Shown piece by piece: positions 1 to 16,429 of a DNA stretch of 64,000 nucleotides (positions are counted from its first letter, which is position 1; each line of letters opens with the position of its first letter). The stretch is taken from positions 128,001 to 192,000 of the forward strand of contig CAVOXA010000001.1 in assembly GCA_963700285.1 (NCBI GenBank), in the 5' to 3' direction. A model generated the notes under the pieces. The model was not told the origin of the DNA, did no database searches, and saw only the letters and a list, made by a program, of their open reading frames with translations. The stretch comes from an uncultured Chloroflexia bacterium (lineage in GTDB: Bacteria > Chloroflexota > Anaerolineae > JAAYZQ01). The translations under genes were made by a program, and so were the position numbers.

Positions 1-60
1 ACTACCTGCGAACTGCAATCCGTCTTGAGCATCATACGGGGTTGGTTTGTACCTAAGGAT

Positions 61-1488
61 ATGACTCAGATTGTACGGGCCGAGCGCGCCGCCTATCGCT
101 ATCCACAGAACAATCATGGTCTGAGGCTCATCTCCCTGGCCATTGAGCCGGGGGAGCGGGTGCTGGTTGCCGGGCCGTCAGGCTGTGGCAAGAGTACCCT
201 GGTTCGCTGCCTGACGGGCCTCATCCCCCACCTCTATCATGGTACGCTGGAGGGTGAAGTGTGGCTGGATGGGCTGCGTACAGTCGATGCGCCCATGTGG
301 CAACTGGCCGAAAGGGCCGGGCTGGTTTTTCAGAATCCTGCCGCCCAGATGCTGGCCCAGTCTGTCGAAGAGGAGATCATCTTTGGTTTGGAGAACCTGG
401 GCCTGTCGCGAGAGATAATCCGCGAGCGATTGGATGCCACGCTGGACCTTTTTGGTCTGGAGTCGATGCGCAAACGGACGCCCCAGACCCTGTCCGGTGG
501 AGAGCAGCAGAAACTGGCTCTGGCGGCTACTACAGCCCGGCGTCCACAGGTCCTCGTGCTGGATGAGCCACTCTCGATGCTGGATGGTACAGCGGCAACC
601 GAGCTGGTTCAGCACCTGACCCACCTGGCGGACGCGGGTACGACGGTCGTCGTGTGCGAGCACCGTGAGGAGTACCTCGGGACGGTGCCCAAGCTGCGTA
701 CAGTAAGCCTCGAGGGTCCTACTGTCAAAGAGGCCGCGATCCCAAAGCTTGAGCCCTATCTCCATGAGCCTCAAGCTCGGAGGCTAGAAGTGAAGGGACT
801 GACGGTGGCCTTGGGCGGGCAGCCTGTCCTCCAGGATCTGAGCTTCTCGGCAGAGATGGGCCATGTGGTGGCCGTGGTGGGTCGCAATGGCGTGGGCAAA
901 ACTACGCTCCTTCGAGCCTTGGTCGGCCTGCAAAAACACGAAGGATCTATCACCATGAACGGTGGCCGTCCTGACCTGGGTATGGTCTTTCAAAACGCCG
1001 ATCTGCAGCTCTTCAATGCCACCGTCCGCGACGAAATCCTCTACCGGGTGCCCGAACCGGACATGGATCTCTATGGCTGGTTGCTGGAGGCGCTGGGACT
1101 TGCTCACTACGAGGGTGTGCCGCCCCTTCTGCTGAGTGAAGGCGAAAAGAAGCGGGTGGCGCTGGCCACGGTCCTCATGCGCCGGCCGCGCCATGGCCTG
1201 CTGCTCGATGAGCCGTCGCTGGGACAGGACGCGGCTCACAAGAAGCAATTGATCCGGGTGGCTCGCACGCTGGCCGAGGCTGGACAACTGGTGGTACTCA
1301 CCACCCACGATCTGACGCTGGCGGCGCAGGCTGACCGCGTGGCGCTGTTGGGGTCGGATGGCTTTGTGGCCCATGGACCGCCGGCTGAGGTCATGGACGA
1401 CGATGCCTCATGGGCACAGCTTGGCCTTTCGGTGCCCGACTGGGTCAAGCCCTCGGGCGTAAGGGCCGTGGAGGGGCTGGAAGTGTGA
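61..1488 (+). CDS. ECF transporter ATPase with two tandem ABC domains (EcfA/A' fusion)
   Basis: Two Walker A motifs (GPSGCGKS, GRNGVGKT), signatures LSGGEQQK and LSEGEKKR, VFQNP motif typical of CbiO/EcfA; ATG at 61 follows AAGGA. Confidence 0.9.
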   Translation: MTQIVRAERAAYRYPQNNHGLRLISLAIEPGERVLVAGPSGCGKSTLVRCLTGLIPHLYHGTLEGEVWLDGLRTVDAPMWQLAERAGLVFQNPAAQMLAQSVEEEIIFGLENLGLSREIIRERLDATLDLFGLESMRKRTPQTLSGGEQQKLALAATTARRPQVLVLDEPLSMLDGTAATELVQHLTHLADAGTTVVVCEHREEYLGTVPKLRTVSLEGPTVKEAAIPKLEPYLHEPQARRLEVKGLTVALGGQPVLQDLSFSAEMGHVVAVVGRNGVGKTTLLRALVGLQKHEGSITMNGGRPDLGMVFQNADLQLFNATVRDEILYRVPEPDMDLYGWLLEALGLAHYEGVPPLLLSEGEKKRVALATVLMRRPRHGLLLDEPSLGQDAAHKKQLIRVARTLAEAGQLVVLTTHDLTLAAQADRVALLGSDGFVAHGPPAEVMDDDASWAQLGLSVPDWVKPSGVRAVEGLEV

Positions 1489-2213
1489 TCAGACTGGGTA
1501 CGACCGGCCGAACGCGGAACCTGGTACTGCAGGAGGCTTCGCCCCTGCGCCAGGCCGATCCTCGTACCAAGTTGGCGCTGAGCCTGTGCGCCTCGTTGGC
1601 AGTAATGCTGACCCTGGAGAAGCTGGTGGTCTTTATTGCCTTCTACGCGCTGCTGCTGCTCTGGGCGCGGCTTTTGCCCGATGCAGCGCAGCAGATCTGG
1701 CGGCTCAAGTGGGTGCTCGTCGTGCTCTTTGTGGTGGATTGGCTGTTCGTAGGCCTGGATCTGGCCGTCATTGTGACCCTCAGGCTGATTCTGTTGGCGG
1801 CGGCCTTTTCCCTCTTTTTCGCCACAACCACGCCAGGTGAGCTGCGCCTGGCCCTGGAATGGTTTCGTGTGCCCTATCGATACGCCTTTGGGCTGGCCCT
1901 TGCTTTCCAGAGCGTGGGCCTGCTGGATGACGAGTGGCGGGGCATTATCGAGGCACAGCGTGCTCGGGGAGCATGGCCCTCCAAGCCACATTGGCGGGAG
2001 ATACTGGACTATGTACGAGATCTGGTGGCGCTGTCGGTGCCGGCCGTTGTGATGACCACCAAACGTGCCTGGGCCATGAACGAGGCGGCCTATGCACGGG
2101 GATTCGATTCGCCCCACCGGCGCTCCTACCATCAATTGACAATGGGCTGGCTGGACTGGGTGCTGTTGGTTGGTACGGTCGCTGCCACAGCGGCATTACT
2201 GGCCTGGAAGTAG
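1485..2213 (+). CDS. ecfT: ECF transporter transmembrane T component (EcfT/CbiQ family)
   Basis: DPRTKL, TTTPGEL, EAQRARG and ARGF motifs; GTG start overlaps the ATPase stop (GTGA). Confidence 0.85.
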   Translation: MIRLGTTGRTRNLVLQEASPLRQADPRTKLALSLCASLAVMLTLEKLVVFIAFYALLLLWARLLPDAAQQIWRLKWVLVVLFVVDWLFVGLDLAVIVTLRLILLAAAFSLFFATTTPGELRLALEWFRVPYRYAFGLALAFQSVGLLDDEWRGIIEAQRARGAWPSKPHWREILDYVRDLVALSVPAVVMTTKRAWAMNEAAYARGFDSPHRRSYHQLTMGWLDWVLLVGTVAATAALLAWK

Positions 2214-2306
2214 TGTCCGAGCCGCAGGTGGTTGGGGCAGCACTGTGTGCGAGTTCGCTGTCCAGGCATGTCGTGAAACTGGAGGCTGCGTAAATAGGGA
2301 GGCTGT

Positions 2307-2816
2307 ATGGCTCAACGAACCAGGATTTTGATCGGGGTTGCGATGCTCATCATTTTGGTGGTCGCGGTGCTGGGTATCGATCTGCTGCAGCGAGCCTCAA
2401 GAGAGCCCCAGGACCTTGCCAAAGGCGAGCCCACAGTTGCGGCGGGCAGCATCCCCATCCGCCTGGATGGCCGGCTGATGGGCAGTTTTGGCCCCACTGA
2501 CCTGGATACTCTCGAGATGGTGAGTTTTGTCGAAGCAGAGGAGGGCAAGACCGAGGAGGGCTGGCTGCTGCGAGATGCCCTCCTGCTCCACGTGGACGAT
2601 CAAGAACTCGAGCCGGACATGGTCATCGTCGTCAGCAGCAGCAGCCGGGACAAGGCAGCCGAACTGACCTGGGCGGAGGTGGATGACCCGGCCAACTGGG
2701 TGATGTTTGATCTCTCGGGCCGGGGTACGCTCAAGCTGGTGTCGGTGCTGGAGAGGCTGGACACGAGGGATGAGTGGGTGCAGGATGTGGATGGGATCGA
2801 GATCTCGAGCCCGTGA
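2307..2816 (+). CDS. Membrane-anchored or secreted hypothetical protein inside the ECF operon
   Basis: GGAGG RBS; N-terminal hydrophobic helix then an acidic soluble domain. Confidence 0.7.
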   Translation: MAQRTRILIGVAMLIILVVAVLGIDLLQRASREPQDLAKGEPTVAAGSIPIRLDGRLMGSFGPTDLDTLEMVSFVEAEEGKTEEGWLLRDALLLHVDDQELEPDMVIVVSSSSRDKAAELTWAEVDDPANWVMFDLSGRGTLKLVSVLERLDTRDEWVQDVDGIEISSP

Positions 2817-2885
2817 TGACTGACGGCAGACGACAGGCGGGTGTTTGGTCTGGGCCTTGTCCTTTGTCCATCCCTGGGGTGATCT

Positions 2886-3434
2886 ATGAAGGAGCGGTAT
2901 TTTTCGACTTTTGAACTCATCTTGATCGCGCTTTTTGCCGCACTGATTGTGGTGTCCAAGATCGCGCTGCGTCTGCCGCTACAATTGTCCGGCCACTCGG
3001 GGATCTTTTGGATGGCCATCGTCATCGTCGCCACTGGGGTTGTGCCCAAGGTGGGGACGGCCAGTCTGGTGGGTCTCACCTCTGGCTTGGTAGCTGCTTT
3101 CCTGGGCATGGGCGACTTTGGCGCGCTAAACACCTTCTTGTCGTATACGGCCGTGGGTGTCAGTACCGATCTGGCACTCCTGGTGCTGGGCCGCAACCCG
3201 GAAAACCCGGTCGTCGCCATGTTGGCGGGCGCCATTGGTCACTTTGGCAAGTTTCTGGTCAAGTATGGCTTTGCCACCCTGGCAGGAGCGCCGGTAGGGA
3301 TTGTCGTCCTCGGCCTGGCTCGGGGCATTGTGGGCTATATTGTCTTTGGGGCGCTGGGCGGACTGCTCGGCGCGTTCACGCTGCGGGCGCTGCGGCGAGC
3401 TGGCTTTTTTGCCTACCTGGCCGAGAAGAAATAG
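2886..3434 (+). CDS. ECF transporter S (substrate-specific) component
   Basis: 182 aa, about 6 TM helices, N-terminal IALFAAL (AxxxA) motif, co-operonic with ecfA/ecfT. Confidence 0.8.
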   Translation: MKERYFSTFELILIALFAALIVVSKIALRLPLQLSGHSGIFWMAIVIVATGVVPKVGTASLVGLTSGLVAAFLGMGDFGALNTFLSYTAVGVSTDLALLVLGRNPENPVVAMLAGAIGHFGKFLVKYGFATLAGAPVGIVVLGLARGIVGYIVFGALGGLLGAFTLRALRRAGFFAYLAEKK

Positions 3435-3502: not shown

Positions 3503-4610
3503 CTAGTTTTCCTCGATCTTGATGGTCAGAATCGCGTCGCCGGGGAGGCCAGGGTTCTGCTGCGGATCACGCGGGGTTATCGCGTCCAAGATGTCCTGCC
3601 CCTCAATGACGCGCCCAAATACGGTGTGGCGATCATCCAGGTGGGGCGTGGCGTCGTAGGTGATAAAAAATTGGCTGCCGTTGGTGTTGGGACCAGAATT
3701 GGCCATCGAGAGCACGCCCGGTCCATCGTGGCGCAGCTCGGGATGGAATTCATCGGCAAAGCTGTAGCCGGGGCCGCCCGTGCCTGTCCCCGTGGGGTCG
3801 CCGCCCTGGGCCATGAATCCAGGCAACACCCGGTGGAAAGTCGTGTTGTCGTAGAAACCCTCGCCTGCCAGGAAAACAAAGCTATTGACGGTATTTGGCG
3901 CCTTGTCAGCATAGAGTTCGATCACGATCTCGCCATTTTCGGTCACGATGGTAGCTTGGTATGATTTGTCAGAGTCAATGGTCATCGGCGGCGGATCGGC
4001 ATAGATGCCGTTGCGCTGGGCGGGTTCCAGGTCGCCAGCCTTTTGCCCCGGCGCCAGGGTCGGAATTGGCTCTGGTTCCAGCAACCCCTGTTGGATGAAA
4101 AAGTCCTTTACGGCCACCCGCTCCGCCTCTGGTGCGAGCTCGATGGACTTAACCGCGGCTGAGACGGCCTCGTCGATGTCGCCTTTTTCCTGAAAGAGCA
4201 CAGCAAGATTGGCATAGTTGGCAAAATCATCGGGCGCCATCTCGAGCAAAATCTCGGTCTCGGCGATGGACTCGTCCAGCATTCCCTGCTGGAAATAGAC
4301 GTAGGCCAGCGCGGAATGGGCCTGGATATTCTCGGCATCTAGTTCGATGATCTGCTGGAAGGTCCCTTCAGCCCCGGCCAGATCTCCGCTGTTGATCTGT
4401 TGGCTGCCCTGAACCATGAGTTCCTCGACCGACTCTGCACCGGAGCCGGATTCGGGCGCGGCCGATGCTTCAGGCTCGATGGTTGTTTCCGGTATGTCTG
4501 TCGGTGCGGTCGTGGGCGCCGGCTCCACTGGTGGGTGTGGGACCCACCAGTGGGCCACAAGCTGCCAAGGACAATATCACAAAGGCCAAGAACACGGTTT
4601 GGATCTTCAT
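3503..4610 (-). CDS. Lipoprotein with TPR repeats and a C-terminal cyclophilin-type peptidyl-prolyl isomerase; one frameshift near 4530
   Basis: [22 protein letters not shown] and [17 protein letters not shown] cyclophilin motifs; ATG at 4610 gives [18 protein letters not shown] (lipobox), out of frame with the 3503-4558 ORF. Confidence 0.85.
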
Positions 4611-4715
4611 CTCTTTTCCTCTCTGCGCTTGGGAGTCGCGCGTCGTACTCGCCTGCGCCGCCTCCGGTGGGGGAGCATGCGGTCCCCGGGCTCCCAGGCC
4701 CGGATCAATGCGGGG

Positions 4716-4744
4716 ATTATACCAGGGTTGTTATCCTGGGTCAA
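4716..4744 (-). promoter_or_regulatory. Sigma70-type promoter for the PPIase gene
   Basis: TTGACC-17 bp-TATAAT on the minus strand. Confidence 0.7.
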
Positions 4745-4936: not shown

Positions 4937-6112
4937 CTAGGGATAGACCTGTACCCAATCGCCGGCCGCTACCTGAAAGATATAGATCTTTTGTTCCTGC
5001 AAATCACCTTCGGTGGAAAAGCTCAATGTACCCAGCGGCGTCTCGAGACCAGCCAGACCACGGATGGCTTCGGCAACCTGGGCTGCATCAAAGGTCTTGG
5101 CCTGCCTCACGCCCTCGGCCAGTACCTCCAGGGCGCTGTAGCCGTTGATGCTGTAGGTATCGGGGTTGCGGTACTCGACAGCCTGGTAGGCTTTGATCCA
5201 TGCCTCGTCGACAGCAGCCTGGGGACGGGGCCCAAAAGCAGAGACATACATCCCCTCAGCAGCACTGCCAGCCTCATCGATGGTGGCCGCCAAAAAGGCG
5301 CCATCGCTGGCCAGGAAGGGAGCCGTCAGCCCGGCCTCCACCAGCTCGATACGCAAATAAGGCGCTTCTATCTCATAGCCCGCATAAAAGACCGCGTCGG
5401 GTTGGGCAGCCAAGATCTGCGAGACCTCGTCTGGGAAGGTAGACTGCTCTACGGCGACCTGTAGGGACAGCACCACTTCTGCGCCCAGGGACTGCAGCTC
5501 GCTGGCCATCAGTTGGCCAAGGCCCTGGCCATACGGGTCATCGTTGTAGATGACGGCTATCTTTTTCGCTCCCAGGTTGTTGACCAGGAACTCGGCGTCC
5601 ACACGGGCTTGCGTTGCGTCGTTGGCGTTGACCCGAAAAAAGTTCCGGTAGCCTGCTTGGGTCAGGCTCACCTCGCTGGAGGTGGGGGTGATGACTACCA
5701 CTGGCAGATCCTCATAGACTTCCATGGCTGCCAGCGTCTGACCGCTGTTCAAGTGGCCGATTACGCCCAAAACCTTTTTGCCCTGGTTGATGGCGGATCC
5801 GACCTCGCCAGCAATGTCCACGGCTACGCCGGAATCAGCCTCGTCGTCCAGGCCCACGACTGTTACCTTGTAGTCCAACAATCCGCCAGCGCGGTTGATC
5901 TCCTCGGCAGCCAGGCGCGCCCCACCCAAGACCGTCTGTCCTCCATTGGCCATAAAGCCTGACAATGGCACGGCGACGTAGACGATGGCCTCACCCTTGT
6001 TTGGCTCTTTGGGCGCGCCACAGGCGCTCAACAGCAGGCAGCAAACAGCGAGCAACAAGATTGGTAGTTTGACTCGATCGTACAAGGGCCATAGTCCCTT
6101 CATGGATTTCAC
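4937..6112 (-). CDS. Branched-chain amino acid (LivJ/LivK-type) substrate-binding lipoprotein
   Basis: Lipobox LLSAC; GARLAAEEIN, VIGHLNSG, FFRV, DDPYGQGL motifs. Confidence 0.85.
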   Translation of the reverse strand: MKSMKGLWPLYDRVKLPILLLAVCCLLLSACGAPKEPNKGEAIVYVAVPLSGFMANGGQTVLGGARLAAEEINRAGGLLDYKVTVVGLDDEADSGVAVDIAGEVGSAINQGKKVLGVIGHLNSGQTLAAMEVYEDLPVVVITPTSSEVSLTQAGYRNFFRVNANDATQARVDAEFLVNNLGAKKIAVIYNDDPYGQGLGQLMASELQSLGAEVVLSLQVAVEQSTFPDEVSQILAAQPDAVFYAGYEIEAPYLRIELVEAGLTAPFLASDGAFLAATIDEAGSAAEGMYVSAFGPRPQAAVDEAWIKAYQAVEYRNPDTYSINGYSALEVLAEGVRQAKTFDAAQVAEAIRGLAGLETPLGTLSFSTEGDLQEQKIYIFQVAAGDWVQVYP

Positions 6113-6120
6113 CTTCTGCC

Positions 6121-6999
6121 TCAGGGTCTGGAGCCCGACGGGCTCAGACCCAGGCCCAATGGATCAGTACCGGCCTGGTAGATCTGGTCCATGGTATGAA
6201 CCACATCTTGCAGGGCCTGGACTTGATCGGCGATGTCCTGTTGCAGGCGCTGAGCGCGGCCTGAGGCCACGTCCCGCGAGTTGAGGATCATCATCTGCGA
6301 GTAGACAGTGCCCATGGCCGTGATTGTGCTCTCCAGTTGAAACTCGGCCTGCTCCATGACGGTCTGTAGTTTGCGGAGGTTGTCCCGCTGGATCTGCCGC
6401 TGGGCAATGGCTTGGCTAATCTGGCGCTTGACGGCATCGTCGTCCTCCAGAGCGAGGCGCTTCTTGAGCCCATCAATGGCAGGTCCCACGGCCTGCATGT
6501 CCCTGTGGATCGTCTCATCGGCCTCATAGTCATCCAGACGCCTGGCCAGCTGAAAGACGTTTTCCATCCAGGCAGTCATGTCTTGGCTAACATCGGCCAT
6601 GTGGCTGCGCAGCACGCCCTCACGGCTGCCATCGATGGCGATGCCGATCCGGTCGCGATACTCAAGCGCCTGCTCGACCTGCCCACGCCGCTTTTTGTTC
6701 TTGATGTCCCGGGCGTCGAACTTGTCGTGGAACATTTCGGCCACAGCTTTGGCCCGGAACGCGGGATCCTTGATGCTGCTCCACACCATTGCCGCTTCGC
6801 CTAACGCACCCAGGGCGAGCCAAAACCACCACTGCCAGAACGGGAACAGCGCCGGTATCACCCCGGCCAAGGTCAGCGCCGCCAGCCCAACAGTCAGGGC
6901 GATGATCACGGCGCTCTCCCAACGATAGATGGCGCGGGTCAGGATTGCGCGGGTCGCCTTCCGCTCAAGTTCTTTCTGGAAGCTGTTGTTTGCCATCAT
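6121..6999 (-). CDS. Two-TM protein with a long C-terminal coiled coil (XpaC-like architecture)
   Basis: Two N-terminal TM helices then heptad-rich helices; abuts the VWA gene (2-bp gap) and the livJ-like gene (8-bp gap). Confidence 0.75.
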   Translation of the reverse strand: MMANNSFQKELERKATRAILTRAIYRWESAVIIALTVGLAALTLAGVIPALFPFWQWWFWLALGALGEAAMVWSSIKDPAFRAKAVAEMFHDKFDARDIKNKKRRGQVEQALEYRDRIGIAIDGSREGVLRSHMADVSQDMTAWMENVFQLARRLDDYEADETIHRDMQAVGPAIDGLKKRLALEDDDAVKRQISQAIAQRQIQRDNLRKLQTVMEQAEFQLESTITAMGTVYSQMMILNSRDVASGRAQRLQQDIADQVQALQDVVHTMDQIYQAGTDPLGLGLSPSGSRP

Positions 7000-7001
7000 G
7001 C

Positions 7002-8720
7002 TTAGAAATAGGTGGATAGGATCTTGTACAGATCCTCGATCGTCTCCAGGTCCCCCTGGCGAACCTGGCCGCCCGTTGACTCGGCGATGATGCGCAATAC
7101 CTGCATGTCCGCATCCTGGCCGTAGGCGATGGCAAAGACGACCACAGGAACTCCCGAATCATCCCTGAGTTCTTGAACCAAGTTGCTCAGGCTGATCCAA
7201 GAGTTATTCTCCCTACCATCCGTCATTACGACGACGGCGTTGATCCGTTCCCCGTCGCCCATCTCTTTGAGTTGCTGTTGGGCAACATATGTGGCGTCCA
7301 GCAGGGCAGTATCGCCTTCGGCCTCCAGACTGTCAACTGCCAGTTCCAGCGCGGTACGGTTGCGGCTCAGTTCATCCAGAGACACTATTGTGTTCACCTG
7401 CGACGCAAACTCGATCAACCCCACCCGCTCCTGCTCGCCCTTGATCTGGTCAAGAAAGATGCGCAGCGCCTCCTGGGCCTGGGCCAGCTTCTCGTCCCGC
7501 ATGCTTCCCGAAGTATCTACTACCAGGTAGACGTTGGTGTGGCGCTTGGTGTACCACCAAACGTCGCGCACCACTTCGATGATGCTGGCATTGGGCACTT
7601 GGAGTGACGTCTTGGGCTCGGACGGATCCACGCCATTGGGCGCTGTCAGTGGCGACGCAGGCCCGTCCAAAGGGATGGAGAGATCGGCTGGCCGGTATCC
7701 ATAGCTCAGGATGATCTGCTGCGCTTCAGGTGAGAGCAGGTAATCGCGGAACTGGGCAAAGGTCTGACGCTGGAGTGGGGTCAGGTCGCCGGTTTCTAGC
7801 AGGGCCAACGGGTGATCTTCCCACAGGGCGCCCTCGGCGGGGTGGATCGCGACCAGTTTCTCCTGCCCTCCTCCCCGTCGCGTGTTAAAGTGGATCACCA
7901 TCTGTTCCTGGACGACAAAGGCGTCCAAAAAATCGCGTCCTTCCAACAACGCTCTCTCAATGATGGCTGGTTCGTCGCCCTCACCATAGTAGCGCACGGT
8001 CTTTTCCAGCGCGGCCACATAGTCCAAGGTCTCCTGGGCCGTGACATCTTTGATGGTCAGTCCCCGAGTCTTGCCCGCACCGGCATAGAACTCGGCAAGG
8101 GTGGCCAGCAGGCCACTGGCGGAACTGGTGGATGGGTGGCTCCACCGGAAATCGGGATCAGCCTGTGCCCGGTCGAGCAGATCCTGCCAACTGATGGGCT
8201 GGTCGGGCCAGCCCATCTCACGGGCAACCCCTTCCCACATGGCAATGACCACCGGACTGACGGCGTAGCGCGCCGTTTCACCTACCGCCTCGCTGCCAGC
8301 CTGTTCATACCAGGCACTGTCAAGCTGCCCCAACCATACGGACGAGTCGGGCGTCATCACCTGGAAAGAAGCGCCTCCCTCAAGTACGGTATTGACCATC
8401 GCCTCGGGATCAAGCGGCACGGCATCGACCGTCACGCTCTGCCCCTCTGCCGTTTCCAGTCCTTGTTCATTGAACCGGTCCACCAATTCCCTGAAAACCG
8501 GTTCTTTCTCCGGTGAATAGGAAATGGTCAGGGCCGCTTCTGGAGCGGGGATGGTTGGCTCTTCGTCGCCATCGAATAGCCGGCTGAGTAGCGCGTAGGT
8601 GCCACAGCAGAGGCCGATCATCAAGAACAGGAGGACGAGTAGCACGACCAGTACCGTGCGCACATTCGAGTCCGAACGCTGTCTAGAACTCCTACTCATT
8701 CTTGCCTGCCTTTTCATCAC
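7002..8720 (-). CDS. Membrane-anchored solute-binding domain fused to a C-terminal VWA domain
   Basis: N-terminal TM; SPVVIAMW, HPSTSSASG and DHP SBP motifs; intact MIDAS DTSGSM...TALLDA...MTDGREN. Confidence 0.88.
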   Translation of the reverse strand: MMKRQARMSRSSRQRSDSNVRTVLVVLLVLLFLMIGLCCGTYALLSRLFDGDEEPTIPAPEAALTISYSPEKEPVFRELVDRFNEQGLETAEGQSVTVDAVPLDPEAMVNTVLEGGASFQVMTPDSSVWLGQLDSAWYEQAGSEAVGETARYAVSPVVIAMWEGVAREMGWPDQPISWQDLLDRAQADPDFRWSHPSTSSASGLLATLAEFYAGAGKTRGLTIKDVTAQETLDYVAALEKTVRYYGEGDEPAIIERALLEGRDFLDAFVVQEQMVIHFNTRRGGGQEKLVAIHPAEGALWEDHPLALLETGDLTPLQRQTFAQFRDYLLSPEAQQIILSYGYRPADLSIPLDGPASPLTAPNGVDPSEPKTSLQVPNASIIEVVRDVWWYTKRHTNVYLVVDTSGSMRDEKLAQAQEALRIFLDQIKGEQERVGLIEFASQVNTIVSLDELSRNRTALELAVDSLEAEGDTALLDATYVAQQQLKEMGDGERINAVVVMTDGRENNSWISLSNLVQELRDDSGVPVVVFAIAYGQDADMQVLRIIAESTGGQVRQGDLETIEDLYKILSTYF

Positions 8721-8794
8721 ACCCAGACTCCAAGACCTGTGGTTCTCAAGATAGGGATGGTGAAGGCCGGGTGCGGGCTATGGGATGTTGGACG

Positions 8795-9985
8795 TTATCG
8801 TCCAGCCACGTTGAGATCGAACCAGCGCAACAGAGCCTGGAGTACGTCCCTATCGGGCGATCGCATGGCCGTGGTACGGGGGACCACTCCGAGCACACCC
8901 TGGCTTGCCCATTGGTCAAAGAGGCTGTCCTCGCCGGTCACTGGCACCTCGGGGTTCGCCGGTCGCAGGCCATAGGCCAGCGCCTGTTTTTGTACTTTCT
9001 CTGACAACAGGTATCTTTCAAATTCCAATGCGGCGTTCTTTTCAGCGGCCGATGTCTCGGGGCCCATCCACACCGTAAAAGGAAAATCAAACCAGGTCAC
9101 ATATTCTGGGTATACGAGGCGTAACGGATCGGCCCAGCGGGTCTGGATGCCCTGCATGTTGACCAGCAGGTCGCTCTCGAGCAATTGCCCGGCATCTCCG
9201 GTCGTGTAGCCAAAGAGGGCCAGGTCAGACACAGTATAGGTCCCGCCCGACAGGTCGCTCATGGAACTCATGATCTCGCCCAGCCAGGCTTGGAACTCTG
9301 GATCGGTCACGTCCTCGACGCTAATGTTGGTCCGGCCATAGTACTCACCAGCTGCCGCAACCATGGCCGCCAGACCACTGATGTTCTTACGTGGATTGGA
9401 TATGGCCAACTTGAAGTAGCCCCAATCGCTCTCTCCTTCCAGCTCCCCCCAGCCACCAGGGGCGATGGCCGCGTCGTGGATCGTTTGCCAGGAGATCTCG
9501 TCGTATCGTTCTTCCAGCACGTCCGCACGACTGTCATAGATGCCCCAGGCTAGCAGCGAGATGGCCAGTGGCCGCGCACGATACTCCCCATCGGTAAGAA
9601 AGACGTCACGGCCTAGCCGTTCCTTGTAGGCCGCGTTGACCAGTTCCACCAGGTAGCGGCTGTCGGGGATCCAGACGGTAGGCAAGGGGTCCAGTTCATC
9701 CCGTTCGTAACGCCCTTTAGCGGTCAGACCATCCATGGGAGTGACTGTCACCTGGATAGGGCGGCCTTCCAGCGTATGCCCTTCAGCGTTGAACTGGTGG
9801 GCAGCTTCTTGTACCCAGTCCGCCACTGGCAAAGCGGAAGCGATCTGTACTTCCAAGGTCTCGTCACTGGCCTCGGGCGCCAGCGGGTCTGGCTGTTTGT
9901 TCACCTGACTCCAGATCAACCCGCCAGCGACGATCACGATGGCCAGGCCAATGATCACAAAGAAAATGATGCGTGTTCGGTTCAT
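8795..9985 (-). CDS. Membrane-anchored solute-binding-fold protein, paralogous to the SBP part of the VWA protein
   Basis: N-terminal TM; VWIPDS, ISWQ, FDFPF and YLLS..VQ..ALAYGLRPA align by eye with 7002-8720. Confidence 0.8.
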   Translation of the reverse strand: MNRTRIIFFVIIGLAIVIVAGGLIWSQVNKQPDPLAPEASDETLEVQIASALPVADWVQEAAHQFNAEGHTLEGRPIQVTVTPMDGLTAKGRYERDELDPLPTVWIPDSRYLVELVNAAYKERLGRDVFLTDGEYRARPLAISLLAWGIYDSRADVLEERYDEISWQTIHDAAIAPGGWGELEGESDWGYFKLAISNPRKNISGLAAMVAAAGEYYGRTNISVEDVTDPEFQAWLGEIMSSMSDLSGGTYTVSDLALFGYTTGDAGQLLESDLLVNMQGIQTRWADPLRLVYPEYVTWFDFPFTVWMGPETSAAEKNAALEFERYLLSEKVQKQALAYGLRPANPEVPVTGEDSLFDQWASQGVLGVVPRTTAMRSPDRDVLQALLRWFDLNVAGR

Positions 9986-10037
9986 AACCGTGTCCTTAAT
10001 GCCTCAAGAATCCTGCATTACTCCATCGCACCGAATA

Positions 10038-10715
10038 TTAGTCTAACCTCAGACGCGCCTTGCGCTCGGCCAGTTGGGATTCCAGGGCACGCTGCTCCAA
10101 GACCTCGTCCATCTGGGCATCCAGGCTGCTGGCCTGCATCTCGCTCTGTGCCGTGGCCTTGTCCAGCCTGGCCCGGATCCCTTCGGCTACACGCGCGATG
10201 TCGTCGTCACCCGAACCAGTCAGGTCGTCCAGGGACTTGTAGGTCTTGGCCGTCAGCTCCTTGGAGCGAGCCAGATCCAGAAGGGCTTGCAGTTCCTCCC
10301 GTTCCTGCTTGACCTCGGTCAACTTGGCTTCCAGCTTCAGGCGGACTTCTTGCAGGCTTTGGAATTCGGCCTCTTGGCGTTCCAGTACTTGCTCGTAGTT
10401 CTGGATCAAGCGATTGGTCGAGTTCAGCCTGCTCTGGGCGGCCAAGGCCAGGTCATCTTTGCCCTCTCGCAGGAAAATGTCAATGTTGCGGTCGAGGTCG
10501 CTAGCCTTCTGGTCCAGAACTGTCTTCTTGCGGCGCAGAGTCTTGACTTCGCCGCCGACCGTAGCGACGGCGTCCTCCAAGTTCTCCAGGTTGTCTTCCA
10601 CCTCTCGAACGTACTGGTCAAAGACGGCCAAGGAGTTGGCCTTGAGTGCCACGTCTACCATCGCGTGCAGGTTGGCCGAAATCAGCGTCTGAACCTTTTC
10701 CAACAGGCTTGCCAT
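10038..10715 (-). CDS. pspA: PspA/IM30 (bacterial ESCRT-III-like) family protein
   Basis: 225 aa all-helical; amphipathic MASLLEKVQTLISANLHAMVD start; LREGKDDLALAA motif; C-terminal LESQLAERKARL; GGAGG RBS. Confidence 0.85.
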   Translation of the reverse strand: MASLLEKVQTLISANLHAMVDVALKANSLAVFDQYVREVEDNLENLEDAVATVGGEVKTLRRKKTVLDQKASDLDRNIDIFLREGKDDLALAAQSRLNSTNRLIQNYEQVLERQEAEFQSLQEVRLKLEAKLTEVKQEREELQALLDLARSKELTAKTYKSLDDLTGSGDDDIARVAEGIRARLDKATAQSEMQASSLDAQMDEVLEQRALESQLAERKARLRLD

Positions 10716-10817
10716 GAATTGTCCCTCCTACTCAACCTGATAGAAGATTCGTCTTTTCTGCCAAAGCCCTATGACGCCCCGCAAAAGAACGCCAGAGAAG
10801 AGCTTTTTCGTCGACTC

Positions 10818-10871
10818 ATTCTACCATTGACCGCCATGCCTTGCATGACCGGCTGCTGACAGCCTGCTGAC
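10818..10871 (-). promoter_or_regulatory. pspA operon promoter: TAGAAT -10 plus three GTCA direct repeats at 11-bp period (PhoB/OmpR-type boxes)
   Basis: Plus-strand TGAC at 10846, 10857, 10868; ATTCTA at 10818-10823; no consensus -35. Confidence 0.65.
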
Positions 10872-10980
10872 GATGGGGGGGCTCGGTCTGAAGACTGTCA
10901 CCCACTGTTTTCCAAGCATCGGCCCGAAAAAGGCTCTGCGTCCCGCTGATTGGGACTTGGAGCGACTGACAGCATAGGTT

Positions 10981-12357
10981 TTAGGACGTGACCAGCTTGT
11001 AGCCCCTCCCTCGTACGGTGACGATGTAGCGGGGGTTTCGCGGATCCGGTTCAAGCTTGGCCCGCAACCTGCTTAGCAGCTTGTCAATACGGGCATCGTC
11101 TACCTGGTCGATATACTCCTCGCCCCACACCGCTTCGACGATCTGGTACTTGTCACAGATTTTGTTCAGGCGGCCGTAGAGCAAGAGGAGCAGGCGGTAC
11201 TCGAGCTCGGTCAGGGTGGCGGTCTGGCGGCTATCCACCCAAACACTGCCACTTTCGACATCCACACGTACACCCTCGTGGCGCCGTCGTCGGGTCAGGC
11301 GCTGGCGACGGACAAAGCCTTCGAATACAGGGGAGAGGAGGATATCCTCCTCCCTGCGGATCAACCCCTTGTTCCGCAAGGAATCCAGTGTGCGTTCATC
11401 CAGGTCTTCTTCACTGCCAACAATGGTCATCAGTGCATCCTGCTGTACCTCGGTCAGGTCAGTCCATAGCTTGCGGCATTCGGCCTGAATATTGATGTCA
11501 CTGTCGAGTTGTTCTCGTACCTGACGGTGGATCAACCAGTCCTGGCCCTCATCCCGTACCGGCTCGCCGGTGACCTCGCCCAACGCCCGGCAGACAGCTA
11601 GCAACAATCCCTGGTGGCCGTCTGCGTGATGGTACAGAAAAGCCCGGTCTTGGTCGTCAAAAGTGTAGCCCTCCTGGATCGCGACCCAAGTGATGATTTG
11701 ATCCACGTCGGCCCTGTTCAGCGGCCCAAGGAAACGCGTAAATGGCTGAAACAGCTCAACGAATTCATCCACATCCCTCCCGCGGCGGATGTTCGATAGC
11801 CTACGGTTGGTGGCCGTCACATAGTTCAGCCGTTCGCGATACTTGTCCTTGAGCGCCCGGAGATTCAAAAAGGCCCGCCCGTCGATCTGCTCAAAGGGTT
11901 CGTCGAACTCGTCAAAGAGCAGCACCAGGTTCCTGGTCGCCTCCCGGCACACGGCCGTCAGCCCCTCACTGAAACTGAGCGAGATCTGAAAAACGGTGGG
12001 CGGGGAAACCAACGTCTGGTATGCGCTCTGCAACTGGGGCAAGAACTCTGCACTGGGATCCTGGATCGTCAACTCTTCCAGCAGGCAGCGCAGAATGAGT
12101 TCGTAGAACCCTTGCTCGGACGCCTCCAGCATCAAGTTAAAATCCACATAGACAAAGATTCGTTCGTCATCATCAAGGCGAGTGGGTCTGGCGGATTGGT
12201 CGTCCAGCAACCAATCCCTGGTCTCAAGGCGAGCCAGCGAGCGCAACAAATGCGACTTGCCCGTGTTGCTCAGGCCAACCACGGCACAGCAATCGCCTTC
12301 GGTAATCCTCTGCAGGATGTAAGTGCTGTCTTCCTGACGCAGTCTATCTGGTAGCAT
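10981..12357 (-). CDS. P-loop ATPase (STAND/AAA-like) fused to a C-terminal OmpR/PhoB-type winged-helix DNA-binding domain
   Basis: Walker A GLSNTGKS, Walker B LLFDEFD; C-terminal LTELEYRLL...SRLRAKLEPDPRNPRYIVTVRGRGYKL; no receiver domain. Confidence 0.85.
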   Translation of the reverse strand: MLPDRLRQEDSTYILQRITEGDCCAVVGLSNTGKSHLLRSLARLETRDWLLDDQSARPTRLDDDERIFVYVDFNLMLEASEQGFYELILRCLLEELTIQDPSAEFLPQLQSAYQTLVSPPTVFQISLSFSEGLTAVCREATRNLVLLFDEFDEPFEQIDGRAFLNLRALKDKYRERLNYVTATNRRLSNIRRGRDVDEFVELFQPFTRFLGPLNRADVDQIITWVAIQEGYTFDDQDRAFLYHHADGHQGLLLAVCRALGEVTGEPVRDEGQDWLIHRQVREQLDSDINIQAECRKLWTDLTEVQQDALMTIVGSEEDLDERTLDSLRNKGLIRREEDILLSPVFEGFVRRQRLTRRRRHEGVRVDVESGSVWVDSRQTATLTELEYRLLLLLYGRLNKICDKYQIVEAVWGEEYIDQVDDARIDKLLSRLRAKLEPDPRNPRYIVTVRGRGYKLVTS

Positions 12358-12489: not shown

Positions 12490-13602
12490 TCAGCGGACAA
12501 GCCCAAGGTTGGCCAGTAGGATGCAGGCCAACTCACCGCCATCCAATTCTACCACAGCGACCGGCAATCTGATACCCGAGTCAACCCTCTGTGGCAAGGC
12601 AGGCAGTTCGAGTACTGTGCCCACCACCCCCTGGTAGGGCGCCCGCAAGCCCCGGACGCGCATCCCCACCTGTACCGGTCGGGGATCGGGCTCCTGCGGT
12701 TCTGCATCCTGGGCTGCGTCGCAGGGTATGAACACATTTGGACGCCTACTTTCCCAGCCTGACGGGCCATCTGCGGTGATCGCCGCATTGCGCCCTTCAT
12801 TGGCCTGAAACAAGGTGAAGGCTTCGTGACGCATGCCAAATGCCCCGAACCCTTCGGTCACCAATACGGGGCAGGGCAACGCTTCTAGCCGTGGACGCAG
12901 CCCAGCGTCCACGCTTCCCACGACCAGTCCCCCAATCTGGGTGTCTACTGCCTTGTCCAGGGCTGCTTCGTCCATGATGGCTCCGCCCACTGCCAAGGTC
13001 TTGTGGCCGTATCTGGGGCTGTCGCCGGGACCATCGCCGGTATCTTCCGCGTCAAACGAATCGGCCGTCAGCAGCTGCTCGGGTTCATCTACCAGTACTC
13101 GAAGTATGCCAGCGGCCTCACCACCACTCCCCCACAAGCCCTGGATCAATGCTCCTACCGCGGAGATGACCGCGCCTCGTCCAGGGACAACGTCCGTGAC
13201 GCGTCCGGTGATTTGAGATCGCAGCTCAAGCGTGGTGGCTTCCGCTTCGACCAGGACCGCGCCGTGGCGTATGGCCACCACCTGTCCATCCACTGGTGCC
13301 TGGCAGCGGCGGCTCCGCCAACTGAACCGGCTCTCTCGTTCCGCCAGTACGTCGTTGGCCCGGACAAGGTCACCGACGTTCTGCCTCACATACTGAACGA
13401 CCTGCTCACGGTTGATACCCAGAGCCAGGCTCACATCAGCTACCCAGACTTTGCCTGGCATCTGGCAACGGGCTATTGTGCCGCCTGGTTCTACCCCGTC
13501 GCCCGGCTGTACCAAGACCTCTCCAGGAACGGGCAGGAGTCGTTCTCGCCGGATGATTGTCAGGGGCAAGCTCTGAGACCCTGCGGAATAGCAGGTGGGC
13601 AT
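12490..13602 (-). CDS. Hypothetical protein with barrel-sandwich-hybrid-like and C-terminal KOW-like segments; downstream partner of the GlmL-like gene
   Basis: PGEVLVQPGDGV, APVDGQVVAI, IQGLWGSG, VLVTEGFG, VGMRVR..RAPYQGVVGTV. Confidence 0.7.
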   Translation of the reverse strand: MPTCYSAGSQSLPLTIIRRERLLPVPGEVLVQPGDGVEPGGTIARCQMPGKVWVADVSLALGINREQVVQYVRQNVGDLVRANDVLAERESRFSWRSRRCQAPVDGQVVAIRHGAVLVEAEATTLELRSQITGRVTDVVPGRGAVISAVGALIQGLWGSGGEAAGILRVLVDEPEQLLTADSFDAEDTGDGPGDSPRYGHKTLAVGGAIMDEAALDKAVDTQIGGLVVGSVDAGLRPRLEALPCPVLVTEGFGAFGMRHEAFTLFQANEGRNAAITADGPSGWESRRPNVFIPCDAAQDAEPQEPDPRPVQVGMRVRGLRAPYQGVVGTVLELPALPQRVDSGIRLPVAVVELDGGELACILLANLGLVR

Positions 13603-13706
13603 TTCTTCTCCGAAAGGTTTGCGGTACAGCCAGCTTTCCAGCCGATACAGTCCTGTCCGGTTGCGGTTCTGAAAATACAGGACATCGACCCCGACCTACA
13701 GCCTCG

Positions 13707-16118
13707 CTAGAACGTCTGCGACCCGATGTCTGATAGCCAGCGTTGCATTCTTGCCTGCTGTTCTCCGGGATCCTTGGTCCGGAGCAGGGGCCGTCCCCGT
13801 GCATCGATAATGACCCCCAAAGCGCCACCTTCGACCTCTTTTGTTACAGCCTGTCCTCTGGCCCCCATGCCCAAGGCGAAACGATTGGTAGGCCGGATCT
13901 CCAAGATTGCCCTGTGTCCGGCAGGCAATGGGAGTACTTTGAGCGAGCCAAATGGCACCCTCGCTTCCATGGCTCGACCATCTTTATACTCGATCTTGAC
14001 GGTCAGGGCAACTTTTCCCTCACGCGCTGTTCCCATGGGCGCCACCACGGTCCCCAGCCTCAGCAGGGCATCCCGCTCCAGTACTTGCAGGGCTGCCAAG
14101 GGGCTAACTGCTGCCACTGCACCTACGGCGGCTGCCAAGCCCAAACGATCCAAGGCCAGGCTGCTCATGCCCACCGGCTGCAGCCCATCGAGCAGAATGA
14201 GGGCTGCCAGACCAGGATGAGGGGCGCTGCCCAGTACCCCCCCCGCTCCAATGATCAGGTCGAACTGCGGTGTCGAGCCCGGGTGCGGAGCTGGCCCATT
14301 GGCGCGCTCTTGGGCGCAAGCGGTCATGGTCCAGCCCAAGATCTCACGGGCGATGGCCTGTTCCAGGAACAGATCCTGACGTGTCTGGGGCAGCGTGTGC
14401 GGGTGCAGTTCTTTGTTGTACAGTGCGTTGCGGGCCTCGGTTGCGTCCAGATGAAAGGGCAGCCAGCCCAGCAGCGACTCTAGCGGTACGTGGTCTAGGA
14501 TTCGGGCAGCCTGGTGGCTGGTACCCAGCTCACCGCATATGAACAGGTCAGGCAGCCTGTCCACCATGGTTGCCACTGCCGTTGTCGCGCCGCCCACATC
14601 CACGGCCAGGATATTGGCCAGATCTTTGTCAGGCTGCGCCAAACGCGCTCTGCTGTACTGGGCGAGATACTGGACTGTGAAGGCCAGTGCCCCGGCCGTT
14701 GGCAGCATCTGGGCAGAACTCCATGCTGCCATTGACCTATAGCCCGGCAAGTACTTTGTCGTATGCTGGTCGTGCAGGTCTTTAACAACGGCCCGAAGGG
14801 GGCCGAGATTCTCCATTTCCGCACTGGGCCGTACATCCTCCACGACCTGTAGTCTGGTGGCATCGCCGACAATACGGGATACTTCCTGCTGTAGAGATCG
14901 ATTGCCAGCATAGATGATAGGCGGGCAGCCAGCCGGCGCTCGCAGTGCATTGCAGGCCACGGTCATTGCCTCCACCGACCTCAGTATCGGTTCGCAACCG
15001 GTGCCAGCCTCACCACCTATCACCACAATGGCATCCGGGATTAGCTCTTGGACCAATCGGACCTGGCTTTCAATGTCCTCAGCAAGGACGTTTCCTGTCC
15101 GCCCATCCGCAATGACGAGACCCTCGATCACGGCATAGGAAAGGGACAAGGCGCGTCGGGCGCTTTCCACGGGTGCCTTATGGGTGGGGGCCGCCAGCAA
15201 AAGCCGTAGTGGGCCACTGGCGCTGGTGGTGAGCACCACTGCGTCTACCCCACCTCCTTGCCCTTCGGGACTGATGATTTGCCCCAGATCGTCCAGGATC
15301 CGCACACCAGTCATGCTGACCATCTGGCCCAGTGCCTGCCGGGCCGAGATGGCCATATCACTCCAAGGGGGCTGGAAGCTGCTGGGCGCTTTGGCCCAGG
15401 CGATCAGGCGGAACTCGTCCTCGACCAAGCCAATGAGGAAAGCTCGAGTCAGCGTGCTGCCACAATCAATGGCCAGGATCGACTCGATGGGATCACAAGG
15501 GGTAGTACTTGTTGTCCTATCATTCGCTCGCTCAGGTGATTGCACGAGCTGGGCACCGATTTCCGGCACCGTCCCTGCCGGCAGCGTCACAATCTCGGAA
15601 AAGTGGCGTGCAGCGTCCAAAATTCTTGCATGGCTCGCGCCAGCATCCTGGAAGCTATTCTCCGTGGAGCTAGATTTGGCCATCGCTCGCGAGGGAGACT
15701 GTGCTATCCAGTCCCCTACGGGCAATGGATCCTGAATGCCAGCCAGCAGATTGGATCCCGCAGAGATGAACCTGGGCACTGAAAACTCTATCCCCCCTTC
15801 CGCCATCAATGGACCGGGTGAGAGGGAAGGGTCCTCATCAGGTGGAGGGAGGTCTGCCAACCATGCTGGAGTCCCACTGCTATCCTTGAGAGAGGCAGGC
15901 AGGCTGTCCTCTTGTGCGGTCTGAGGATCTGTGACCTCCACAGAATGCGACGGTGATAATTGTTCCCCGCACTCGTTACAGAGTGCGTCGGCAATAGGGT
16001 TCAGCGCCCCACACCGGGAACACTTGATCTGCATCGAGAGATCGAACTTGACCCCACACTCGTTGCAGTAATTGCTACCGCGGCGGTTAGCGGTCCCGCA
16101 AAGGGGACAGTAGATCAT
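13707..16118 (-). CDS. GlmL-family (glutamate mutase L-like) ASKHA ATPase with an N-terminal double zinc ribbon
   Basis: AIDCGSTLT, AVDVGGATT, IIGAGGVL, IIDARGRP; N-terminal CPLC..CNEC..CSRC..CNEC; start set at ATG 16118 after GAGG. Confidence 0.8.
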   Translation of the reverse strand: MIYCPLCGTANRRGSNYCNECGVKFDLSMQIKCSRCGALNPIADALCNECGEQLSPSHSVEVTDPQTAQEDSLPASLKDSSGTPAWLADLPPPDEDPSLSPGPLMAEGGIEFSVPRFISAGSNLLAGIQDPLPVGDWIAQSPSRAMAKSSSTENSFQDAGASHARILDAARHFSEIVTLPAGTVPEIGAQLVQSPERANDRTTSTTPCDPIESILAIDCGSTLTRAFLIGLVEDEFRLIAWAKAPSSFQPPWSDMAISARQALGQMVSMTGVRILDDLGQIISPEGQGGGVDAVVLTTSASGPLRLLLAAPTHKAPVESARRALSLSYAVIEGLVIADGRTGNVLAEDIESQVRLVQELIPDAIVVIGGEAGTGCEPILRSVEAMTVACNALRAPAGCPPIIYAGNRSLQQEVSRIVGDATRLQVVEDVRPSAEMENLGPLRAVVKDLHDQHTTKYLPGYRSMAAWSSAQMLPTAGALAFTVQYLAQYSRARLAQPDKDLANILAVDVGGATTAVATMVDRLPDLFICGELGTSHQAARILDHVPLESLLGWLPFHLDATEARNALYNKELHPHTLPQTRQDLFLEQAIAREILGWTMTACAQERANGPAPHPGSTPQFDLIIGAGGVLGSAPHPGLAALILLDGLQPVGMSSLALDRLGLAAAVGAVAAVSPLAALQVLERDALLRLGTVVAPMGTAREGKVALTVKIEYKDGRAMEARVPFGSLKVLPLPAGHRAILEIRPTNRFALGMGARGQAVTKEVEGGALGVIIDARGRPLLRTKDPGEQQARMQRWLSDIGSQTF

Positions 16119-16429
16119 CTTAGCCTCGATCTGGTCCAGGACTCGGGTACCCATGTACCTGTGATGACACATGGGTTGCCGCTGTGAGACTGGCCCCGCC
16201 TGCATGTTCGCCTGGTCTAGAAGCTCTTGGAGTTATCCGCTGGGTTCTTGTTTTGGCTCTCACAATGTCAGCCGGATGACAGCCGTGAGAGCAAAGTATA
16301 CCATGCCTCAGCCTGTTGGGCAAGTTGCTTTTGGAAACGTGGGATATCGCACCCGCAGGCACGTCAGCATCCTCGCTCCTTGAAGGGTTTCTAACCGTAC
16401 CTGGGGGAAACAGAAATGCCGTGAAGGAT

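Follow-up and report, generated by a model that had tools for sequence, protein, structure and literature searches.

The window analysed here, a stretch of 64,000 nucleotides on contig CAVOXA010000001.1 of an uncultured Chloroflexia bacterium, carries a candidate envelope-stress locus built around PspA, the ESCRT-III-like protein of phage shock protein (Psp) systems. Six open reading frames (ORFs), all on the minus strand and each with one full-length copy in the 7.05-Mb genome (G000), encode a regulator, PspA, a membrane-anchored solute-binding protein (SBP), a second SBP fused to a vWA domain (SBP-vWA), a helical protein with two predicted transmembrane segments (2-TM protein) and a LivJ-like lipoprotein (Table 1). 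An earlier interpretation of the letters alone (hereafter the sequence-only reading) had described six co-oriented genes in this order, closely spaced from pspA downward and lacking both a transport system and the usual Psp partners, and our analysis bore this description out. The regulator gene is separated from pspA by 265 bp, and the gaps that follow are 52 bp (pspA to SBP), 74 bp (SBP to SBP-vWA), 2 bp (SBP-vWA to 2-TM) and 8 bp (2-TM to LivJ-like). Unlike an ATP-binding cassette (ABC) importer, the locus encodes neither a permease nor an ATPase for import, whether among the six genes or next to them, and searches of the six proteins against Pfam and NCBIfam returned no match to PspB, PspC, PspF or LiaFSR.

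Table 1. Genes, predicted regulatory features and candidate regulon sites. Positions are those of the window unless a contig of the genome (G000) is named.
Feature	Position	Strand	Remarks
Regulator, 458 aa	10981..12357	-	N-terminal STAND/AAA-like NTPase and C-terminal OmpR/PhoB-type winged helix
Three GTCA direct repeats, 11-bp period	10844..10872	-	Predicted operator over the pspA -35 region
Extended -10-like box TGGTAGAAT	10818..10826	-	Fixed spacing behind the GTCA repeats
PspA/IM30 (ESCRT-III-like), 225 aa	10038..10715	-	PF04012 PspA_IM30, 64.8 bits against a cut-off of 33.9
N-terminally membrane-anchored class-II SBP, 396 aa	8795..9985	-	Class-II fold model; homologous to the solo SBP in TelA loci
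Membrane-anchored SBP-vWA fusion, 572 aa	7002..8720	-	SBP_bac_11 and VWA, MIDAS motif
Predicted 2-TM protein with cytosolic all-helical bundle, 292 aa	6121..6999	-	Without a Pfam family; language-model features resemble PspM
LivJ-like (class-I) binding lipoprotein, 391 aa	4937..6112	-	Peripla_BP_6, E 3e-51; last gene of the predicted operon
Membrane gene and flotillin operon with element	G000:C15:271134-273700 (L133)		
ABC-2 exporter, candidate regulon site	G000:C22:122954 (L176)		
Zn_peptidase_2, candidate regulon site	G000:C3:53295 (L177)		
DUF7544 membrane protein, candidate regulon site	G000:C1:1549908 (L134)		

Within a comparison set of 41 genomes, the gene order was kept in the loci of 29 relatives as far as their contigs reach, indicating an arrangement that exceeds chance. 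Counting only loci whose contig extends far enough, SBP-vWA was present upstream of the 2-TM gene in 29/29 (split in two loci, partial in one and with an inserted gene in three), the solo SBP in 28/28, pspA in 25/25, the LivJ-like gene in 25/26 and the regulator in 16/21. The 2-TM gene was matched in 30 of the 41 genomes, including 21/22 from the same taxonomic family and 8/18 from other families of the class. Close homologs bear Anaerolineae names in their source records. Within the family, these single-copy genes averaged 69-83% identity, with the solo SBP the most conserved of the six (83%). The operon's PspA was the only one over the cut-off in the genome, and fell within a supported clade of 24 rows (99/96) composed mostly of operon-linked PspAs. 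By its sequence, the locus is supported as a conserved PspA envelope-stress locus without a permease, as originally proposed.

The regulator gene was present in 26/41 genomes. Its product matched Trans_reg_C (E 1e-19) and, weakly, nSTAND1 (31.3 against a cut-off of 27.1) and AAA_16, both below or near the cut-off. It possesses a Walker A motif (GLSNTGKS) and a Walker B motif (LFDEFD) and no receiver domain; the Walker A residues G/S/N/G/K/S and the DEFD stretch were invariant in 17/17. Inspected by eye, the regulator also occurs in other contexts (L165-L167, L169), where what follows it is a cNMP-binding gene, a GAF/receiver pair, or genes of trmFO-like and ribosomal type. Regulators of the OmpR/PhoB type follow a family rule by which their direct repeats recur every 11 bp and cover the -35 region. 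Both features are present at the locus, where a winged-helix protein is encoded upstream of such repeats at the -35 region of pspA, to which it is predicted to bind. The -10-like box behind the repeats stood at an identical offset in 24 of the 26 training sites having a -10 match. Upstream of pspA, the GTCA pattern was found in 16/20 regions of a first set (one of the 20 being incomplete, and two regions without an assigned start and four pspA loci being left out), and a later matrix scan exceeded 10 bits in 17/21 relatives with room for the element, using a matrix partly trained on those same loci. Three of the four pspA loci without the element were in genomes where the regulator was not found. 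A simple promoter scan did not pick up the promoter of pspA, and no terminator was detected after the operon.

Only two strict triple-GTCA sites occur in the genome, against 0.93 expected by chance, and the second precedes a membrane gene and a flotillin gene. A matrix derived from pspA sites only, which 4/4000 random windows passed, placed the element before the flotillin operon (Band_7 and Flot) in 18/24 genomes. Regulator and flotillin element occurred together in 15 of these genomes, the regulator only in 2 (both from other families), the element only in 3 (75-81% complete) and neither in 4. All four family members without the flotillin element also lacked the regulator gene, in genomes that are 88-95% complete, and the regulator's link to the locus, as the sequence-only reading had it, is backed by a DNA element gained and lost together with the regulator. 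In two relatives (G032, G034) the regulator gene is no longer at the locus and a 2-TM gene was not detected, with the element still before pspA; the pspA carrying it in G034 belongs to another PspA clade. With a combined matrix, five sites in the genome were over the threshold, preceding the flotillin, pspA, ABC-2 exporter, Zn_peptidase_2 and DUF7544 genes. The Zn_peptidase_2 element recurs in 6/11 family orthologs (6/26 loci scanned) and the exporter element in 5/21 loci. Two further matrix matches (C21:2820 and C4:61041) were rejected as lying inside ORFs. Both ORFs of the flotillin operon are frameshifted here, and several ORFs in other parts of the genome seem broken in a like manner, possibly through assembly errors; its first gene had no Pfam match and takes its YqiJ/YuaF label from context only. 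In B. subtilis, sigma-W controls pspA-ydjGHI, yuaF-floT and xpaC-yaaN (PMC3498285, in part). As in that regulon, pspA, a flotillin operon and protease and ABC exporter genes would here share one regulator, with the difference that a one-component NTPase-winged-helix activator with direct repeats is predicted, whereas B. subtilis employs an extracytoplasmic function (ECF) sigma factor. This likeness in gene set is the best support for a role in membrane stress. The regulator likely activates both the pspA operon and the flotillin operon via the shared GTCA repeat, and the occurrence of the element before pspA, flotillin, protease and exporter genes points to a membrane-stress regulon resembling that of sigma-W in content.

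Three of the operon's products are binding proteins. The solo SBP reached 21.9 bits with SBP_bac_11, below the cut-off, and its fold model (pLDDT 89.5) matched class-II binding proteins in Foldseek (E 7e-11), the nearest structures binding sulfate, sugar-phosphate or iron at 12-17% identity. SBP-vWA is paralogous to the solo SBP (21% identity). Its MIDAS was described as intact in the sequence-only reading, and indeed DxSGS and TDG were each found in 26/26 orthologs, with the middle Thr present in the window protein and matched by the search pattern in only 12/26 orthologs. Identification of the last gene product as a LivJ-like lipoprotein also held, given its family match and an LSAC lipobox at Cys31 (read from the sequence). 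The claimed kinship of both SBPs to those of TelA loci was recovered, at 98.3% in hhalign for the solo SBP and E<=1e-29 for SBP-vWA, so that by its solo SBP and SBP-vWA families the locus is of the kind seen in TelA loci. One alternative is that these proteins serve uptake or nutrient sensing via permeases encoded elsewhere, with phosphate or a different oxyanion as ligand, or amino acids in the case of the LivJ-like protein, and with the repeat being a Pho-box-like site of a different OmpR-family regulator. The ligands of the folds nearest to the solo SBP are in keeping with this, as are related loci near pstBS or phoX, the alignment of the LivJ-like protein over ~340 residues to Leu/Ile/Val-binding proteins and the 25 PF02653 matches in the genome. 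GTCA repeats spaced by 11 bp resemble Pho boxes. However, none of the five over-threshold genome sites precedes a pst gene, the element was lost together with the window-type regulator and, among the matches listed, no import permease cluster recurs beside the operon in the 29 loci. Nor is an SBP-vWA fusion known to be an importer subunit. In favour, PspA occurs together with PBPB+OmpA and an ABC transporter in contexts described by Ravi et al. (PMC11237479, in part). We regard an uptake function as quite improbable.

The 2-TM protein probably has two membrane helices. Its structure model is all-helical, with helices at 27-44 and 57-77 followed by a long bundle, and its hydropathy profile has one clear peak (27-55); the 2-TM label from the sequence-only reading holds for the model and is matched by hydropathy in one segment only. 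Relatives are numerous (842 at E<=0.001 among 50%-identity representatives). In the ESM Atlas, the nearest named family was PF25587 Rv2743c (PspM), at 0.91 with 199/256 features (40% of that cluster's members; 21/30 hits). PspM is the membrane partner of mycobacterial PspA and retains one PspA species at the membrane (10.64898/2026.09.09.750162, in part). Kinship to XpaC found no support, PF10112 remaining below the cut-off with a best E of 0.019 (in 1/24) and an E of 0.046 in one fusion homolog. Profiles likewise lent no support to two further candidates: a TM-Snf7 protein (Snf7 at E 0.0023 in 1/24; 6% against the PspA profile) and a homolog of the 2-TM protein of TelA loci (10% and 3% in profile comparisons, in which the TelA-side alignments had 3 rows only). 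Foldseek with the model returned nothing at E<=0.001 and no ESCRT-III protein among the listed matches; the best VIA Z of 12.6 (rmsd 3.6, 148 aligned) belonged to unrelated helical bundles and is at background level, and a PDB sequence search with the profile yielded generic coiled coils only. The helical domain is also found fused to BTAD, kinase, kinase-TCAD9 and pentapeptide/2TM domains (P0138, P0180, P0225, P0238, P0250, P0255), which fits an interaction module.

We evaluated how far the solo SBP, SBP-vWA and 2-TM protein (the trio) travel together beyond these relatives. An SBP homolog was found in 48/301 genomes of a phylum sample, patchily even inside the class, and 40 loci were examined from 34 of the 47 other SBP-positive genomes, 23 of the loci with a 2-TM homolog. 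Four genomes outside the class (L050-L053) keep the order pspA-SBP-SBP/vWA-2TM-LivJ, and another locus (L079) reads pspA-2TM-SBP/vWA. TelA (PF05816) was not found in G000 and was present in 1/41 genomes (G022), where a locus of the form SBP-TelA-SBP/vWA (L130) occurs alongside the PspA-type operon. A 2012 survey of Ter and TelA systems by Anantharaman, Iyer and Aravind may cover TelA-type SBP-vWA loci. At one TelA-type locus, a Wadjet-type jetA gene and its neighbours lie nearby (L102:11265-15215), and a flotillin gene flanks the locus on its opposite side. Beyond the phylum, at least 80% of the SBP-vWA protein was covered by matches in six plasmid-collection records, and 8 of 1302 matches were inspected: SBP-TelA-SBP/vWA-2TM is encoded in Variovorax and Sphaerotilus and an equivalent without TelA in Deinococcus; TelA is also missing in Thiodictyon, which has the twin SBP pair, and in Miltoncostaea, where the 2-TM protein is a true homolog (E 6e-14). 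The trio is wider than its link to pspA, occurring also with TelA, with kinases or alone. PspA and TelA profiles show no detectable homology (hhalign 0.2%); the suggestion that PspA takes the TelA slot stands as a description of gene context and not as one of descent, and the trio also occurs without either. In a quick tree (98 SH-aLRT), solo and vWA-fused SBP domains formed two groups whatever their partner, so the twin arrangement likely predates the choice between PspA and TelA.

Variants of the trio carry other domains. At L054-L058 and L089, a fusion of zinc ribbon, Ser/Thr kinase, transmembrane segment and SBP is followed by SBP-vWA, providing direct evidence of this SBP family coupled to signalling domains. 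A histidine kinase follows the trio at L068, L069, L072-L074, L077 and L087 (plus a response regulator where checked), and at L081:7748-9382 and L082:3164-4798 a binding protein with NMT1 and OmpA-like domains stands next to SBP-vWA in place of the solo SBP, reminiscent of the PBPB+OmpA partner described by Ravi et al. 2024. Such a module might alternatively sense biological attack by phage, predatory or epibiotic bacteria or pore-forming peptides through the vWA/SBP pair and the STAND-like regulator, PspA and flotillin then serving as effectors of defence. Surface sensing of epibionts in Actinomycetes is vWA-based in the Esr system (10.64898/2026.09.08.750141, in part), which as far as that source goes is a different system, and the fusions of SBP or helical domain to Ser/Thr kinases, BTAD and TCAD9 would suit such a role, as would the jetA gene near a TelA-type locus. 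Against it, the locus has no MoxR, FHA or beta-propeller partner, and its genes, single-copy and at the family identities given above, are not variable as defence genes are. We consider a defence module very improbable.

A further explanation is that the genes form a co-regulated stress package in which the trio works as a surface module of its own and PspA shares its transcript, with neither physical nor signalling contact. The trio, or part of it, lacks pspA in 34/40 phylum loci; it has TelA beside it in Variovorax and Sphaerotilus but not in Deinococcus, Thiodictyon or Miltoncostaea; its SBP domains group regardless of partner; and the element accompanies pspA even where the trio was not found. 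Conversely, the link between pspA and the 2-TM gene is precisely what some rearranged loci retain. Among 13 further pspA loci, a 2-TM gene lies near pspA in two (adjacent in L235, one gene apart in L236) with the SBPs elsewhere, and the order at L079 keeps the same pairing; pspA adjoins flotillin in L234, and the remaining loci have neither a 2-TM gene nor flotillin. Moreover, 9 of the 11 relatives without a 2-TM match have no PspA (two have one). A PspA was present in all 47 other SBP-positive genomes, though PspA is common, being found in 9/14 controls as well (the other 253 genomes, all SBP-negative, were left out). Co-transcription without contact is possible, though on balance unlikely.

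Our preferred interpretation is a conserved Psp-type operon with a GTCA element, through which the adjacent regulator activates a small membrane-stress regulon including flotillin, and in which the trio forms a complex that tethers PspA; we assign it a probability of roughly 60%. In the circuit we infer, the regulator would bind the GTCA repeats and activate the operon from pspA to the LivJ-like gene together with the flotillin operon. The SBP and SBP-vWA, judging from topology and shared inheritance, would be exposed on the outside and assemble with the 2-TM protein into a surface complex that does not transport, possibly acting as sensors. By topology, the 2-TM protein alone would carry a large membrane-bound domain on the cytosolic side, and its bundle may recruit PspA and hold it to the membrane in the manner of mycobacterial PspM. 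From what is known of their families, PspA polymers would then seal or stabilise damaged membrane with the help of flotillin. The NTPase domain would likely gate DNA binding by the regulator, and free PspA could hold the regulator off, by analogy with PspF and ClgR. Several observations weigh against this interpretation. The genomes showing co-loss of regulator and element are kin (two in one genus) and represent few independent losses rather than a statistic. One genome (G011) has the pspA element but no regulator, G024 keeps the regulator yet its pspA element is degenerate (3.3 bits), G037 has the regulator but no PspA, and G032 and G038 have the regulator and no flotillin element. At least 10 further OmpR-type winged-helix genes in the genome encode possible binders of the repeats. 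The PF25587 hidden Markov model (HMM) gives no match to the 2-TM protein and reaches the cut-off in 0/301 phylum genomes (E 0.012 on one distant homolog); since the HMM tests do not confirm kinship, the PspM resemblance is a lead only. Liv-type permeases are encoded elsewhere in the genome. Finally, pspA is near the trio in only 6/40 phylum loci and the two are apart in most other classes, the 2-TM gene there staying with SBP-vWA (23/40 loci) while pspA is solitary. Tentatively, and with considerable doubt, the trio might be a widespread transporter-free damage-sensing complex with swappable outputs (PspA, TelA, Ser/Thr kinase, histidine kinase), which in Anaerolineae would recruit PspA via a PspM-like anchor and release new one-component NTPase-winged-helix activators running a sigma-W-like repair regulon without an ECF sigma factor or two-component system.

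By its PspA the locus is a Psp system, with a PspA/IM30 domain, a linked membrane partner and a regulator associated by linkage and DNA element, and by the features tested it is not of the PspFABC, Lia, ClgR or TelA type. One close counterpart is the actinobacterial ClgR-PspA-PspM(-PspN) system (Rv2745c-Rv2742c), in which an activator and pspA are likewise followed by a 2-TM protein of similar size; here, however, the activator is an NTPase-winged-helix protein (Trans_reg_C) instead of ClgR, and three binding proteins are added. TelA loci of the form SBP-TelA-SBP/vWA-2TM (Variovorax, Sphaerotilus, with G022 comparable) share the homologous solo SBP and SBP-vWA followed by a 2-TM helical protein, and differ in having TelA where the window has the unrelated PspA, in 2-TM proteins that are not detectably homologous, and in lacking the regulator and LivJ-like gene. 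The Bacillota xpaC-telA pair acts in membrane stress (PMC6811118, in part). Nearest in the literature are the contexts of the form PspA-PBPB(+OmpA)-TM/Snf7 in Ravi et al. 2024, which also place pspA immediately before a class-II SBP and have a gene for a transmembrane coiled-coil protein; those seen include Snf7, with ABC and double-AAA ATPases in one of the forms listed, and name no vWA, twin SBP, LivJ or NTPase-winged-helix protein (PMC11237479, in part), whereas the window locus has no ABC ATPase and its 2-TM protein is not detectably PspA- or Snf7-like. In E. coli PspF-PspABC, an ATPase-containing activator is similarly encoded beside pspA (PMC7619361, in part), but the regulator here has no sigma-54 activator domain, is encoded by a co-oriented gene and is accompanied by a sigma-70-type -10 box, with no PspB or PspC match. 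Unlike LiaIH-LiaFSR, the locus has no receiver, kinase or Lia match (LiaH model 21 bits against a cut-off of 380). A description of the operon or regulator was not found in the Psp surveys searched, a search that stopped short of the Ravi web tables, the Popp supplements and the 2012 Ter survey. The main text of Popp 2022, taken without its supplements, does not mention Chloroflexi, Anaerolineae, VWA, SBP, solute or substrate; the portions seen of the main text and supplement 1 of Ravi 2024, web-app tables aside, contain no vWA, SBP, XpaC or TelA; and Chloroflexi are not mentioned in Makarova 2024 or a 2025 ESCRT-III review. Judged from its genes, the locus is a conserved and new Psp variant; with its predicted regulon it would make up a membrane-stress circuit so far undescribed.

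How membrane damage is sensed and ESCRT-III proteins are placed in bacteria without PspBC or LiaFSR is largely an open question, and the locus offers a complete, testable circuit from Chloroflexota comprising a regulator family with its operator sequence and regulon, and a candidate anchor. It also offers a first way into the function of the common 'substrate-binding and VWA domain' proteins, and ties together the PspA, TelA and flotillin stress modules. Upstream of the regulator (12490-16205, minus strand), a 370-aa barrel-sandwich-like protein and a zinc-ribbon/MutL/GlmL-like protein are encoded, an arrangement shared by ~12 relatives. After the operon lies a gene for a tetratricopeptide repeat (TPR)-cyclophilin lipoprotein (3503-4744, minus strand), with short GTCATTCCCGC-type repeats in between and a strong terminator at 3479-3436; as this gene has its own 11/12 sigma-70 match at 4744-4716, the LivJ-like gene is the predicted end of the operon. 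Beyond it, on the plus strand (25-3434), are genes for an energy-coupling factor (ECF)-type transporter with a double ATPase, a T component and an S-like component (PF09819).

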